From positions 640,001-704,000 of the forward strand of contig CAWKDB010000002.1 in assembly GCA_963848295.1 (NCBI GenBank): a stretch of DNA of 64,000 nucleotides, given 5' to 3'. Every line of letters starts with the position of its first letter. Position 1 is the stretch's first letter. This document shows, piece after piece, positions 15,490-21,404 of this stretch. The position numbers were made by a program, and so were the translations under genes. Below the pieces are notes generated by a model. That model ran no database searches. It was not told where the DNA came from and saw only the letters and a program-made list of their open reading frames with translations. This DNA is from an uncultured delta proteobacterium (GTDB lineage: Bacteria; Myxococcota_A; Polyangia; Haliangiales; Haliangiaceae).

Positions 15490-16545
15490 TGGGCAACCGT
15501 CTTTACCACCGCTCTTGGGGGTGTCGATCGTCGTGGGATCGCGCAAGTTGGCCCACTTCGACGCCGCGCTGGTCGGCTACACGTTCGCGACGCTTTTCGC
15601 GACGTTCGGGATCACCTACCGTTACGCGATGTGGCTCCAGAGGCCGCCGACGCGGATGTACTGGCGGCGCGGCTGGCAGGCGTTTCTGCGCCCTCGGCTC
15701 CTCGGCGCAACCTGGCGGCGCTCGGCCGCCGCGCTGGTCGTGCAGGTCGCCGCGAACCGTTTCATATTCCGGCGCGAGCGGCTCGCGCGGCGCTGGCGCA
15801 CTGGCTGATCATGTGGGGCTGCCTCCTGGCCGCCGCCATCACCTTTCCCCTCGTGTGGGGCTGGATTCACTTCGAGACCGCGCCCGGCACGTTCGACATG
15901 TACCGCACGTTCCTCTTCGGCTGCGCGGCCGGCGACTTCCGTGTCGACTCGGTGTCGGCGTTCATCGTTTTTCACGGCCTGGTCTGGTCGTCGTTCCTCG
16001 TGATCGGTGGCGTGATGTTGGCGTTCCGGCGCCGCATGCGCGATCACGGCGCCGCCGCCGTGCAGCAGTTCGGCGAGGACATCCTGCCGCTCGTTGCTGC
16101 TGTTTGCGATCAGCGTGACGGGGCTGATGCTGACCGCCAGCTACACGTGGATGAAGGGCTACGCCTACGACTTCCTGGCCATCCTGCACGCGATCACCGT
16201 CATCATGACGCTGCTCTGGCTGCCGTTCGGAAAGTTCTTTCACGTCTTTCAGCGCCCGGCCCAGCTCGGCGTCGCGCTTCTACAAGGACGGGGCGCGCGC
16301 AGCAGCAGGCGCGCTGCAGGCGGTGCGGCCGGCCGTTTGCGTCCGCGCTGATGGTCGCGCGACCTCGATCGCCGTGGAGCGCGAGCTCGGGTTCCGCTAC
16401 GAGCTCGGCCGAGGCGGCGCCGGGCACTACCAGGAGATCTGTCCCGCCTGCCGGCGCGCGCTGTTCGGCCTCGCCAAGGCAGGTGGCGCGCTGGGCAGCG
16501 GCGAGCGAATCGGCGCCAAATGGCGCAGCGCGCTGCGTGGCCTGA
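15490..16545 (+). CDS. NarI-like multi-pass membrane protein with C-terminal CxxC...CxxC; frameshifted, start uncertain
   Basis: Fragments [39 protein letters not shown]...[12 protein letters not shown] and CRRCG...ICPAC across several frames. Confidence 0.7.
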
Positions 16546-16579
16546 GCGCAGCGAGCTCGCTCCGAGAGAGAATGATTGA

Positions 16580-18859
16580 ATGGCCACGCTTCCTGTCGAC
16601 GAGCTGGCGATCATGCACGCGTTCGGACCGCACCTGTCGCGCAGGCACGCGCGGCTGCCACCGCGTCGAGCCCGAGCGGCTCGTGAAGACGCACTGCTGC
16701 TTCTGCGGCCAGCAGTGCGGCATCCAGCTCAAGGTTCGCGGCAACGAGGTGATCGGCTTCGAGCCGTGGGAGGAGTTTCCCTTCAACCACGGCATGCTCT
16801 GTCCCAAGGGCGTCAAGCGCTATCTGCAGGGCGCGCACCCGGACGGCTGCTGACCGCGCTCCGGCGCGATCCGTCGGCGCCCGGCGGATTTCGCGTCGAT
16901 GCCGTACGACGAGGCGATCGGCGCGTCGGCCGACGAGATCGGCGCATCCAGGCGGCGCACGGCCCGGCGCGTCGGCGTGCTCGGCGGCGCCAGCCTCACG
17001 ACCGAGAAGACCTACCTGCTCGGCAAGTTCGCGCGCGTCTGCCTGAAGACGCCCTACATCGACTACAACGGCCGGCTGTGCATGGTGAGCGCCGGCGGCG
17101 GCGAACAAGAAGGCGTTCGGCATCGACCGGCGGCGAACCCCTGGTCCGACATCGTCGGCACGGACGTCATCTGGGTCGCCGGCTCGAACGTCGCCGAGTG
17201 CTCGCCGATCACGACCAACTACATCTGGCAGGCGCGCGAGCATGGGCGCGAAGGTCATCGTCCAGGATCCGCGCATCACGCCCATCGCGCGCACCTGCGA
17301 CCTGTTCCTGCCGGTCAGGCCCGGGCGCGACGCCGCGCTCTTCGCCGGCGTGCTCGAGCCTGATGATCGAGCAGCGACTGGATCGATCACGCCTTCATCG
17401 ACGCGCACACGACGGGCTTCGACGCGGTGGCCGCGTACTGCCGCGAATGGCCGCTCGCGCGCACCGCGGAGGTCACCGGCGTGCCCGAGCGGGCGATCCG
17501 CGCAGGCCGCCGAGTGGTGGGGCACGCGCCAAGACGAGCTTCCTCCTGCACGCGCGCGGCATCGAGCATCACTCCAACGGCGTCGCAGAACGTGCTCGGC
17601 GCGATCAATCTCGTGCTGGCCTCCGGCCGGATCGGCCGGCCGAACTGCGGCTACGGCACGATCATCGGCCAGGCCAACGGCCAGGGCGGGCGCGAGCACG
17701 GCCAGAAGTGCGACCAGCTCCCGGGCATGCGCGACATCGCGAATCCCGAGCACCGCGCGTACATCGCCGGCGGTCTGGGGCATCGACGAGCAGCGAGCTG
17801 CCGCGGCCGGGCGTCGACGCCTACGAGATGTTCCGCAAGATCGACGCGGGCGAGATCAAGGGCGCTGATCGCGATCTGCTTCAACCCGAAGGTTTCGCTG
17901 CCCGACAGCACAGTTCATCACGCGATGCCTGGACAAGCTGGAGTTCTTCGTCGGCGATCGACTTCTTCCTGAACGACACGGCGCGCCACGCCGACATCGT
18001 GCTGCCGGGCAGCCTCCAGGAAGAGGACGAGGGCACGGTGACGCAGGTCGAGGGCCGGGTCATCAAGATCAACAAGGCCGTCGACTGCCCCGGCGAGGCC
18101 CGCGAGGACTGGCGGATCATCCAGGACCTGGCCGCGCGCGCTCGGCCGGCCGCATGGCTTCACGTTCGACGAGTCCGCGCGAGATCTTCGAGGAGCTGCG
18201 CGATCGCCAGCAAGGGCGGCATCGCCGACTACTCCGGCATCACCTACGAGAAGATCGAACGGCAGATGGGCGTCTTCTGGCCGTGCTACAGCGAGGATCC
18301 GCGAACCGGCGAGCCGATCGATCACCCGGGCACGCCGCGGCTGTTCGAGCCGGGCAGCTACAACCCGGTCGCCAAGGGCGCCGGGCCGTTCTACTTCCCG
18401 GACGGCAAGGCGCGGTTCAACGTCGCCGACTACCGCGCTGCCGGTCGACGATGCCGGCGGCGAGTATCCGCTGTTGCTGACGACCGGCCGCGTGGTGAGC
18501 CAGTTCCTCTCGGGCACCCAGACGCGGCGCATCGGCCCGCTGGTCCACCAGTATCCCGAGCCGCGCATCGAGCTGCATCCGCGCCTGGCGGCAAGCTCGG
18601 CATCGCCGACGGCGACTGGGCCACGGCCGAGACGCGCCGCGGCGCGATCACGCTCCAGGCGCTCGGTGGTCACGACGATCCGGCCGGACACGATCTTCAT
18701 TCCGTACCACTGGGCCGGGACCGAAGAGCGCCAACCGGCTGACCGTCGCCGCCCAGGATCCGATCAGCAAGATCCCGCAGTACAAGGTCTGCGGCTGCCG
18801 GCTGCGCAAGGCCGACGGGCCGCCGGCGTACGCAGGCGAACCTGGAGCCGCAGCAGTGA
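16580..18859 (+). CDS. Molybdopterin oxidoreductase catalytic subunit, nitrate-reductase (NasA/NapA)-like; multiple frameshifts
   Basis: [11 protein letters not shown]...LCPKG Fe-S motif, NGRLCMVSA active-site region, [26 protein letters not shown] and [12 protein letters not shown]. Confidence 0.88.
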
Positions 18860-18863
18860 GCGC

Positions 18864-19549
18864 ATGCCGATGCCCGTGCCAGACCTGCGAGTTCTTCATC
18901 GACCCGAGCCGGTGCATCGGCTGCCAGGCGTGCGTGCAGGCGTGCAGCGAATGCGACACGCACCGGGGCCAGTCGATGATCCACCTGGAGTACGTCGACC
19001 GCGCGGAGAGCGGTGCAGACCGTGCCGGTCGTGTGCATGCACTGCGACCAGCCGACGTGCGCCGAGGTGTGCCCGGCCGACGCGATCAAGCGGACCGAGG
19101 ACGGCGTCGTGCAGTCGGCGCGCAAGCCGCGCTGCATCGCCTGCGGCAACTGCGTGCTGGCCTGCCCGTTCGGCGTGCCGGAGGTCTACGTCGACGCAGC
19201 AGCTCATGATGAAGTGCGACATGTGCTACGACCGCTCCGCGTCGGCAAGAAGCCGATGTGCGCGACGGTCTGCCCGAGCCAGGCGCTGTTCTTCGGCACG
19301 CGCGAGGAGATCGAACAGCTGCGGCCCGCCTCCGCGCCGGTGAACGAGTTCCAGTTCGGCGCGCAGACGATCACGACCGGGTGCGTGATGATGACGCCCG
19401 GAACGTCGCCAGCCGCGCGCCCGTGGTGGACGTGACGGCCGCGATGAGCGAACAGGCGCGGCCGCGGGCGATCTCGTTCAAGGTCGTGGCGCCGTCGGGC
19501 GACCGACGACGGGCCGGACCCGTACGCGGACGTGAAGGTGGAGGAATGA
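18864..19549 (+). CDS. 4Fe-4S dicluster electron-transfer subunit (DmsB/NrfC-like); frameshifted
   Basis: [39 protein letters not shown] and KCDMCYDR...PMCATVCP. Confidence 0.88.
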
Positions 19550-20105: not shown

Positions 20106-20106
20106 C

Positions 20107-20342
20107 ATGCCGACCGCCCCTCGCTCAGCCGCGCGCAGCGCACGACCATCGTCTCGGGCATGGTGGCGTTCGTGCTGATCATCCTCGTGCTGCAGCTCTG
20201 GCTGCTCACGGCCACGATGAACGCGTATCTCGGCGGCGACACGAGCGTGATCTGGCCGGCGGCGCTCGCGAGCCTCGGCTGCCTGCTGCTCAACGCCGGC
20301 CTGCTTCGCTACGTGCTGCGGCTCGAGGGCCGCCGGCGGTGA
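20107..20342 (+). CDS. Small two-TM protein (DUF6755-like)
   Basis: LQLWLLTATMNAYLGG motif. Start uncertain because of a frameshift. Confidence 0.7.
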
Positions 20343-20344
20343 CG

Positions 20345-21404
20345 ATGCGACGCCCGGGGCCGCGCCCGCGACGGCTCGGCCCTCGCCGGCCTCCATCCCG
20401 CCTACTTCGCGATGGTGATGGCCACCGGCATCGTGTCCATCGCCTCGCTGCTCGTCGGCTTCCGCGCGATCGCGGTCGCGCTCCTGCCGGCCAACGTCCT
20501 CTTCGCCATCGTCCTTGGCCGTGTTGACCGCCTGCGCGTGGTCCGGTATCCGCGGCGGGTCGCGGCCGATCTCGCCGACCACGGGCGCGCGGTCGGTTTC
20601 TTCACGCTGGTCGCCGCCACGAGCGTGCTCGGAAGCGAGCCAGACCCTGCTCCTCACCGGCGCGCGATCGATCGCGACATCGCTCTGGATCCTGGCGATC
20701 GTGTTCTGGGCGACGTTGACCTATACGGTGTTCACGGTCTTGACCGTCAAGCGGGTCAAGCCGACGCTGGCGGGAGGGATCAACGGCGGCTGGCTCGTGG
20801 CGGTGGTCGCGCCGCAGTCGATCGTCATTCTCGGCGCGCAACTCGCGGCCGGCTTCGGCGCGCACGCGCAGGCGGTGCTGTTCTTCTGCCTAGCATGTGG
20901 CTGGGCGCGGGGATGCTCTACATCTGGATCATCTCGCTCATCTTCTATCGCTACACGTTCTTCGTGCTCGAACCATCGGACCTGGCGCCGCCGTACTGGA
21001 TCAACATGGGCGCGGTGGCGATCTCGACCCTGGCGGGAAGCTTCCTCATCCTCGACGCCCCCCAGTCGCCGCTGCTGGCGCAACTGGTGCCGTTCCTAAG
21101 GGCTTCACGTTGCTCTTCTGGGCCACGGCGACGTGGTGGATTCCAATGCTGGTGATCCTCGGGGTCTGGCGCCACGGCGTCGCGCGGTTCCCCCTGCGCT
21201 ACGACCCGCTCTACTGGGGCGCCGTCTTCCCGCTCGGCATGTACACCGCCTGCACGTGGCGGCTGGCGCAGGCCATCGACGGTGCCCTCGCTCATGGCGA
21301 TTCCCCGCGTGTTCATCTTCGTCGCGCTGGCCGCGTGGTGCATCGTCGCGGCCGGCATGGCGTGGCACCTCCTCGGCCGGCCTCGTCTTGCAGCAAGTCG
21401 ATGA
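20345..21404 (+). CDS. TDT / SLAC1 family (tellurite-resistance/dicarboxylate) anion channel; frameshifted
   Basis: PAYFAMVMATGIVS, INGGWLVAVVA, PPYWINMGAVAISTLAG and YWGAVFPLGMY. Confidence 0.85.

Follow-up and report, generated by a model that had tools for sequence, protein, structure and literature searches.

A conserved operon predicted to encode a membrane-bound nitrate reductase with NarI-like and Rieske subunits

The window analysed here is a stretch of 64,000 nucleotides from an uncultured delta proteobacterium of the Haliangiaceae (assembly GCA_963848295.1, contig CAWKDB010000002.1, positions 640,001 to 704,000). On its plus strand, at about 15458-21404, lies a run of six genes which code, in this order, for a NarI-like membrane protein (subunit A), a molybdenum (Mo) enzyme (subunit B), a ferredoxin (subunit C), a Rieske protein (subunit D), a peptide with two transmembrane helices (subunit E), and a TDT-family anion channel. 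As judged from sequence comparisons, the operon probably encodes a cytoplasm-facing, quinol-fed, dissimilatory nitrate reductase that works in a NarGHI-like manner. If readings that differ only in wiring or purpose are included, nitrate is highly likely to be the substrate. The five core genes likely encode one membrane complex, to which the sixth gene likely adds an anion channel. The complex is likely a membrane-bound nitrate reductase of an undescribed type; its catalytic part is assimilatory-like, but likely serves respiration. The initial annotation of the window had proposed a membrane-bound nitrate reductase whose subunit set corresponds to neither Nar nor Nap nor Nas; family models, sequence motifs and a phylogenetic tree support this proposal.

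Four of the six window genes are split over several reading frames. All analyses were based on intact relatives, and the intact operon of the relative G015 (proteins P0001-P0006) served as the reference copy. In a frameshift-aware alignment, the window genes 1 to 6 are 75, 82, 74, 55, 62 and 64% identical to their G015 counterparts, and the gene run as well as all motifs previously named for it were found in the window. The start of gene 1, which had been placed at 15490, has to be revised: homology already begins near 15458, where no in-frame start codon is visible.

Gene set and catalytic subunit

A DNA search of 40 related genomes detected the operon in 13 of them, namely in 10 of the 24 genomes of the same genus and in G029, G037 and G040. 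When GTDB genomes were scanned for subunit A, at least 600 stretches were obtained, of which at least 565 were confirmed; all counts for 80 loci given below refer to the best 80 of these. Some loci may belong to more than one set, so that the sets do not represent independent samples. The Mo gene is located next to the gene of subunit A in 80/80 loci, and the core A-B-C-D-E is complete, in order and on one strand in 66 of the 67 loci that offer sufficient room. The core gene set is thus conserved beyond chance. The sole exception with room (L077) lacks genes for the ferredoxin, the Rieske protein and DUF6755 (subunit E), and a Mo match follows about 2.7 kb past subunit A. The titles of the 80 loci name Myxococcota, Acidobacteriota, Planctomycetota and others. 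Subunit A is present in 31 of 251 genomes of the phylum of G041, operon copies were also found in Deinococcus and Brevibacillus records, and homologs of subunit A occur in many Paenibacillus and Bacillus species. According to matches of subunit A, cultured carriers are Paenibacillus mucilaginosus, Deinococcus spp. and Sorangium cellulosum. Ahead of the Brevibacillus copy (L106:2416-7719) lie two radical-SAM/SPASM genes, which resemble AhbC/D of heme synthesis, as well as a hemerythrin-like gene, narK and a Crp/Fnr-like gene.

The Mo subunit of the window contains the motifs CxxCxxxC and GRLCMVS as well as a further motif of twelve residues, and its N-terminus is free of a twin-arginine. The best NCBIfam model for P0002 is NasC (NF047855) with a score of 741 bits, which is below the cut-off of 1100; the Deinococcus operon copy scored 787 and a Paenibacillus NasC, used as a control, 1165. 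This cut-off is narrow, because three other NirB-linked NasC copies also missed it (649-843 bits). The scores of P0002 were 512 bits for formate dehydrogenase (Fdh), 231 for NapA (cut-off 931), 104.5 for AioA (cut-off 359) and 52.7 for the NarG model TIGR01580 (cut-off 1084). The top PDB sequence matches of the Mo subunit were formate dehydrogenases. However, the ligand segment reads R[LF]CM in 26/26 aligned operon copies and in most nitrate reductase references, whereas Fdh has (C/U)H at this site, and the Arg of the Fdh motif RGQ is missing from the operon proteins. The ligand motif NGR[LF]CM and the pocket motif GQ[AG]NGQGGREHG are common to the operon and to NirB-linked NasC, unlike Fdh.

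The tree was calculated with 11 reference proteins from plasmid and E. coli records, several of which are long-branched; L116 has no full-length Mo protein and was omitted. The operon copies cluster together as a single group (SH-aLRT 97 in one tree, 90/92 in another), and the clade of NasC and the operon proteins has a support of 100/99. In approximately unbiased (AU) tests, which were based on the LG+G4 tree (a further quick tree agreed with it), grouping of the operon copies with Fdh was rejected (p 2.4e-9), whereas grouping with canonical Paenibacillus NasC was not (p 0.059). An FdhF-type formate dehydrogenase was therefore discarded as a candidate on account of the Cys-Met instead of Cys/Sec-His, the missing Arg and the AU test. 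Among the outcomes that the initial annotation had held against its own proposal were a grouping with formate dehydrogenases and a canonical NasA with NirBD partners. The first did not occur. As to the second, the Mo subunit belongs to a group of its own next to NirB-linked NasC, and no match to NirB was found beside the operon in 96 loci.

Membrane subunits and proposed working of the complex

Subunit A of the window contains the four histidines H116, H174, H245 and H263 (numbering of P0001) and the tail motif CRRC..CPAC. H116, H245, H263 and the four cysteines are invariant in 51/51 sequences, and H174 is found in 47/51; the Brevibacillus copy mentioned above has an Asn in its place. No Pfam match over cut-off was obtained for this protein. 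Its model (pLDDT 91) has EtfD as the top fold match (Z 11.4, rmsd 4.0, 223 aligned residues) and also matches the fold of NarI (VIA Z 10.0, rmsd 5.6, 186 aligned), albeit with Z values of 10-11 that do not reach what the tool regards as safe for helical bundles. The similarity to the bc-type cytochrome b6 fold is lower (Z only 5.5). An hhalign comparison with NarI gave an E-value of 8e-4 and a probability of 25%, and aligned H245 and H263 with the last two histidines of NarI. A NarI fold of moderate strength is thus predicted for subunit A. From the order of the helices, we infer that H116 and H263 ligate a cytoplasm-side heme, and H174 and H245 an outer heme. The tail of subunit A, which comprises P0001 residues 283-339 and lies at about 16300-16470 of the window, can be superposed on the C-terminal portion of chain F of E. 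coli formate hydrogenlyase (7z0t_F; Z 6.2, rmsd 1.7, 52 aligned), where the matching region presumably holds a single-metal site.

The Rieske protein of the window contains ERRELMKF ahead of a hydrophobic helix. The RR pair is invariant in 56/56 sequences; the cluster ligands and the disulfide cysteines are invariant too. N-termini with RRx[FLM] occur in 90/92 Rieske proteins, in 1/94 Mo subunits and in 0/97 ferredoxins; NapA was positive in this control. The solved chains nearest to the Rieske profile are AioB (E 1.7e-18) and bc-type Rieske proteins. At the sites of Ser and Tyr in high-potential Rieske proteins, Gly and Phe are found, an exchange that would lower the potential towards the menaquinol range. 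The two-helix peptide is DUF6755 (PF20540, 101 bits for the G015 copy).

A model was computed for the G015 proteins A, C and E with the Rieske protein as partner, leaving out the Mo subunit. It reached a score of 0.83, compared to 0.34 for the best of three controls; this mark is met by 116 of 157 solved pairs and by 2 of 215 mismatched ones, counts which are only roughly applicable here. At least 95% of the contacts were common to the runs, and the pLDDT of the partner was at least 81. Modelled contact pairs link the Rieske helix to DUF6755 and to A254/255, and Rieske residues 43-45 to the ferredoxin. The list of interface residues includes the Rieske cluster loops 133-138, 151-156 and 166-171, and the outer-face segments 139-150, 164-173 and 226-242 of subunit A, from which contact between these loops and the outer face is inferred. 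The model supports binding of the Rieske protein to subunit A, DUF6755 and the ferredoxin. To our knowledge, no complex of such composition has been solved.

In the proposed mechanism, the Rieske head would be exported by the Tat system, stay anchored, and cap the outer face of subunit A near H174/H245. Quinol, presumably menaquinol, would be oxidised under this cap with release of protons to the outside. The electrons would pass from the distal heme (H174/H245) to the proximal heme (H116/H263), and from there by way of the four clusters in C and the one in B to Mo, such that nitrate would be reduced to nitrite on the cytoplasmic side in a NarGHI-like redox loop. The transporter encoded next to the core would move nitrate in or nitrite out, and NirK or NrfA, where present, may take nitrite further. 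The source genome (G000) possesses tatC, menB and moaA; the futalosine MqnA family was not found in it, menB being found instead. Because no nitrite reductase was detected in this genome, nitrite would be exported there, and qNor, Ric and globin may handle nitric oxide (NO) arising as a by-product.

Genome context and competing readings

Co-occurrence was assessed in 80 genomes, which comprise 44 carriers (the 13 of the DNA-search set and 31 of the G041-phylum set) and 36 non-carriers. The latter are 24 of 27 from the first set, defined by DNA search only, and 12 of 220 from the second. The tests cover NirB, NirK, NrfA, qNor, NarG and NapA, and all p values ignore kinship and genome incompleteness. 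Note that the non-carriers include the unpublished genome G010, without which 14 non-carriers of the genus become 13, 36 in total become 35 and the NirK/NrfA count becomes 10/35; the conclusions are unchanged. NirK or NrfA is present in 29/44 carriers and in 11/36 non-carriers. Within the genus, NirK occurs in 6/10 carriers compared to 1/14 non-carriers (p 0.009), and the NirK match of G019, which falls 1 bit short of the cut-off, is located upstream of the operon at a distance of about 3 kb. In the second set, NrfA is found in 21/31 carriers compared to 2/12 non-carriers (p 0.005), and nrfA lies inside the fetched operon locus in L100, L157, L158, L166, L167 and L179. NarG and NapA are both missing from 5 of the 6 nirK-bearing carriers and from 11 of the 21 nrfA-bearing ones; NapA was found in only 2/44 carriers. 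In eight carriers (G132, G156, G188, G198, G235, G253, G262, G289), narG is located on the contig of the operon within about 5-30 kb, and both enzymes are therefore kept side by side.

In G008, nirK is flanked by norR and ywiC, and the contig that carries these genes terminates in the TDT gene of the operon. In G008 and G019 nirK follows norR and thus fills the norR-ywiC slot that is empty in the window. In the window itself, 34774-37210 reads norR-ywiC-DUF3565/DUF1971-tryptophan dioxygenase, which is the order of G008 minus nirK. The initial annotation had taken the lack of nirK as a hint that the enzyme itself may be a source of NO. Given that nirK occurs in 6/10 carriers of the genus and in the same island of G008 and G019, this argument is weak. 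Likewise, the vicinity of qNor, which had been noted in the window, is a local feature. qNor, queried in both frames, adjoins the operon in 1/80 loci, which rules it out as a fixed partner. At the level of genomes, qNor occurs in 5/10 carriers compared to 3/14 non-carriers of the genus (p 0.20), and in 17/31 compared to 1/12 of the second set (p 0.006).

The sixth gene of the operon matches Pfam PF03595 with 171.6 bits (G015 copy, cut-off 27.9), scores 89 bits with TIGR00816 (under the cut-off of 237) and has no match among PDB sequences. In the 57 untruncated loci of the best 80, the corresponding slot holds NarK only in 30 cases, TDT only in 25, both in one and neither in one. The NarK-type transporter (TIGR00886, about 210 bits) is thus fused to or located beside A in 31/57 loci and TDT in 26/57. 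NarK is mostly fused in frame to subunit A, which is why databases name the latter 'MFS transporter', or else 'hypothetical'. After addition of 26 loci, 81 of 106 were complete; with a stricter 2.5-kb rule, 39 of these contain NarK, 29 TDT, 4 HPP (PF04982), one both and 8 none. On the tree, the TDT label changes 8 times, and at least 4 of the changes are forced by well-supported branches. A Fisher p of 7e-14 for mutual exclusion of TDT and NarK was set aside, as it ignores kinship and the tree-aware test is not significant. Genome-wide, a NarK match is missing in 7/10 genus carriers and in the source genome; in G022 and G024, NarK adjoins nirB. In plants, SLAC1/SLAH and HPP proteins carry nitrate and nitrite according to the accessible part of PMC10605003. 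The alternation of TDT, NarK and HPP is a lead to a nitrate/nitrite role of TDT, not a proof. A second, partial TDT gene at window 29859-30014, beside CBS-domain and globin genes, covers residues 195-269 and is about 66% identical to the operon TDT of relatives.

Several observations weigh against a dissimilatory, NarGHI-like enzyme. Besides the modest Z values, the profile of subunit A found nothing under E 0.8 among PDB sequences, and Foldseek with the model found nothing at E 0.001. Doubt attaches to the distal heme: ten residues past H116, the alignment column holds Ala, Gly or Ser, H174 is lost in 4/51 sequences and, as the candidate fourth heme ligand, it sits on another helix than in the NarI pattern. 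EtfD, likewise a NarI fold, holds only one heme according to the accessible part of PMC13083937; a NarI fold with a stacked heme pair is described in that of bioRxiv 10.64898/2026.08.18.745454. Furthermore, at the position preceding GQ, where NasC has Thr, the group of the window has Ile or Val. NrfA is not enriched within the genus (2/10 carriers, 5/14 non-carriers), 15/44 carriers possess neither NirK nor NrfA, and NarG also occurs in 11/44 carriers (0/24 genomes of the genus). The alternation of TDT and NarK rests on four independent pairs (sign test, median p 0.5). Finally, no NirK, NirS, NrfA, NirB or NarK was found in the source genome, which is 85% complete. It also shows no NarG or NapA and has only two other Mo-family genes; its match to TIGR02376 (73.7 bits, cut-off 296) is a multicopper oxidase and was rejected as a NirK.

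Among the alternatives, the one that survives best is the same nitrate reductase with the Rieske head as a branch point instead of a cap, although we consider it unlikely. Quinol electrons would then be split, or periplasmic carriers would feed in; in the split variant, one electron would reach Mo via the hemes, and the other would pass via the Rieske cluster to periplasmic carriers and NirK or NrfA. The Rieske protein is indeed of the disulfide-bearing, membrane-anchored bc/AioB type and is kept in every locus with room except L077, its cluster loops and outer-face residues of A are both in the modelled interface list, and periplasmic nitrite reductases are frequent partners. In addition, Rieske and cytochrome b subunits have been proposed to provide haloarchaeal Nar with a Q-cycle (accessible part of PMC2483277). 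However, no cytochrome c gene is conserved among the operon neighbours, 15/44 carriers possess neither NirK nor NrfA, the fold of A is that of NarI and not of bc cytochrome b, and the model gives no residue-by-residue pairing of the Rieske head with A. With the same low likelihood, the operon may represent a fourth architecture of prokaryotic nitrate reductases besides Nar, Nap and Nas. In it, a Tat-exported Rieske head and a cytochrome b of NarI fold would make up a bc-like quinol site, from which electrons would go both to the reduction of nitrate inside and to that of nitrite outside, and a bacterial SLAC1-family channel would be the conduit for nitrate and nitrite.

It is improbable that the complex is a membrane-fed assimilatory nitrate reductase which supplies nitrite for biosynthesis, as has been proposed for Bacillus bataviensis. 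Such a role would fit the NasC lineage of the Mo subunit and the fact that its joining with Paenibacillus NasC was not rejected, and the accessible part of PMC3475470 suggests an alternative assimilatory system. NrfA likewise yields ammonium, and the sole NIR_SIR-domain protein of the source genome (G000:C10:2344310-2345512, L117), which is below the cut-offs of the NirA and sulfite reductase models (241.6 bits, cut-off 523), could not be typed within this NirA/sulfite-reductase family. In contrast, NirB is found in 4/44 carriers and 5/36 non-carriers and beside no locus, and the operon is surrounded by genes for low oxygen and NO, with Ric, Crp/Fnr, Rrf2 or globin nearby in 26/80 loci compared to 4/467 same-sized pieces of G000, a comparison that is biased since the queries were drawn from the loci.

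Even less probable is another reaction, be it the reduction of chlorate, selenate or tellurite, the conversion of nitrite to NO, or reverse running as a nitrite oxidase. The substrates of TDT proteins include tellurite, malate and sulfite, after which members of the family are named; the exchange of the pocket Thr in the window's group and the NO-stress genes nearby could also be read this way. However, several genomes have nirK and nrfA next to the operon, and all three families that occupy the transporter slot have described nitrate/nitrite carriers (NarK by name, SLAC1/SLAH and HPP in the accessible part of PMC10605003).

The least probable alternative is an outward-facing enzyme, whose Mo subunit and ferredoxin are exported on the Tat signal of the Rieske protein. 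AioA is exported together with AioB in this manner, and the closeness of the Rieske profile to AioB and the twin-arginine motif on the Rieske protein alone would agree with it; yet a transporter gene, for which an external active site would have no need, accompanies the operon in 56/57 loci, the modelled ferredoxin contact at Rieske residues 43-45 precedes the RR motif and hence lies on the inner side, and the score with the AioA model is 104 bits (cut-off 359).

State of the window copy and comparison with known systems

The positions of the operon genes and of context genes are listed in the following table. The TDT gene ends with its stop at 21404 and is arranged tail-to-tail with the minus-strand qNor, 53 bp apart.

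Table 1. Operon genes and selected neighbours in the window
Feature	Position	Strand	Remarks
Subunit A, NarI/EtfD-fold membrane protein, predicted cytochrome b, C-terminal CxxC..CxxC metal site	15458..16545	+	74.6% identity to P0001; 8 frameshifts; start codon not visible
Subunit B, Mo-bisPGD catalytic subunit, NasC lineage, with one [4Fe-4S] motif and Cys-Met as ligand motif, without Tat signal	16580..18859	+	81.8% identity to P0002; 26 frameshifts
Subunit C, DmsB/FdnH-type ferredoxin, cysteines for four [4Fe-4S] clusters	18864..19549	+	5 frameshifts
Subunit D, Rieske [2Fe-2S] protein, disulfide cysteines, RRxF motif followed by one membrane helix	19546..20105	+	1 frameshift
Subunit E, DUF6755 peptide with two membrane helices, thought by the model to clamp the anchor helix of the Rieske protein	20107..20342	+	Pfam PF20540
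TDT/SLAC1-family anion channel, slot held by NarK or HPP elsewhere	20345..21404	+	4 frameshifts; start approximate
qNor nitric oxide reductase with frameshifts, convergent with the operon; non-conserved context	21458..23757	-	PF22085 + COX1
Truncated globin, context	31257..31634	-	
Ric/ScdA iron-centre repair protein, context	32460..33125	-	
NorR, NO-sensing sigma-54 activator, context	33177..34774	+	NCBIfam 538.8 bits, cut-off 476

The six-gene run contains 44 frameshifts (30 insertions, 14 deletions) but no in-frame stop. A true pseudogene with real frameshifts, a question that is separate from the function of the enzyme, would be in line with a frameshift density far above that of NorR, Ric and globin in the same window (1, 0 and 0 frameshifts), with the lack of a visible start codon for gene A and of a match between the 600 bases upstream and any relative's locus, and with an island that is devoid of nirK and NarK, so that the genes may be unused. 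We nevertheless regard this as unlikely and the frameshifts as very probably local sequencing errors, because so many indels occurred without an in-frame stop, insertions are in excess, the end branch of the Mo subunit is not lengthened (0.092, compared to 0.088-0.17 in intact relatives, at 82% identity), and the extra bases are missing at the same places in contigs of related organisms, which are other strains. In addition, qNor of the window is likewise frameshifted. Among public sequencing runs, no reads of this strain were found (best share 0.10), and no RNA run is listed. Owing to these probable sequence errors, the window copy is a poor specimen of the operon.

A tyrosine integrase and an N6-adenine methyltransferase of 966 amino acids are encoded directly upstream of the operon (window 10469-15013). 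Since the 600 bases before gene A match no relative's locus, the promoter and the start of the operon may have been displaced in the window. Two pieces of a DUF1295 gene (window 10243-10614 and 41360-41720), which are 77% alike over 375 bases, flank the region from the integrase to NorR and may mark the boundary of an island.

If the complex is respiratory, gene surveys would file it under the wrong process, as its best family match is the assimilatory NasC. It would then provide the first step of denitrification or of dissimilatory nitrate reduction to ammonium in many genomes of Myxococcota, Acidobacteriota, Planctomycetota, Bacillota and Deinococcus that seem to have none. For DUF6755, on which the literature search returned 0 papers, the model suggests a first role, namely that of clamping the anchor of the Rieske protein. 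From the slot of the sixth gene, a role in the passage of nitrate or nitrite can be proposed, and tested, for a TDT channel of bacteria. As several carriers are in culture, the question is directly accessible to experiments. The literature search found no study of the complex; subscription papers and supplements were outside this search, and either could mention it. In their accessible parts, PMC10100899 does not separate the operon group from NasC/NasA, and PMC2700814 and PMC6349859 concern other enzymes. What is added here is the model of the complex, the alternation of TDT, NarK and HPP with its check on a tree, the links to nirK and nrfA, and the rejection of qNor as a fixed partner.

A related gene group has been reported for Bacillus bataviensis. 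According to the accessible part of PMC3475470 (2012), BABA_16882/16877/16872 code for a 729-residue 'NasC', an iron-sulfur (FeS) protein called HCP and a Rieske protein, in this order and away from nirBD. The set was read as assimilatory; this part of the paper reports no experiment on the set and names no membrane subunit, DUF6755 or complex for it. The gene group is likely the same operon, because its best match was in P. mucilaginosus 3016, which has a homolog of subunit A.

Compared to NasC (NF047855; NirB-linked copies in Paenibacillus, Skermanella, Ca. Mycobacterium and Deinococcus), the Mo subunit shares the best family match, the motif NGRxCM, the twelve-residue motif, one supported clade and the absence of a Tat signal. 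It differs in its score (741, cut-off 1100), its separate subgroup, the absence of NirB beside it and four extra partner genes, three of which code for membrane proteins. NarGHI (E. coli, PDB 1Q16) has in common with the operon a subunit of NarI fold, a four-cluster ferredoxin and a Mo subunit without Tat signal, and NarK accompanies about half of the operon loci. In contrast to NarGHI, the catalytic subunit of the operon belongs to the Cys-ligand NasC lineage and the His pattern of the distal heme differs; no tblastn match to E. coli NarJ, used as a single query, was found in 96 loci. The Rieske protein, DUF6755 and the CxxC..CxxC tail are extras that NarGHI lacks. NapA differs, as the Mo subunit of the operon has no Tat signal and scores 231 bits at a cut-off of 931. 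AioAB resembles the operon in carrying a Tat signal on the Rieske protein only, and AioB is the nearest solved relative of subunit D. However, in contrast to AioA, a Cys ligand and a cluster motif of four cysteines are found in the Mo subunit (AioA score 104 bits, cut-off 359), and the operon also comprises a ferredoxin, a membrane subunit and a transporter.

The NarG of haloarchaea faces outward. The haloarchaeal nar operon resembles ours as a nitrate reductase operon with both a Rieske protein (NarB) and a cytochrome b (NarC) and with predicted quinol oxidation, but according to the accessible part of PMC2483277 it contains NarG/NarH, NarJ and a cytochrome b of 486 residues. The membrane domains of EtfD and EMO, finally, comprise the top fold match of subunit A and share three conserved histidines with it. 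As described in the accessible parts of PMC13083937 and bioRxiv 10.64898/2026.08.18.745454, these domains, unlike subunit A, carry HdrBC-like FeS domains as fusion partners and pass electrons from ETF to quinone, and their NarI fold can hold one heme, two hemes or a stacked pair.

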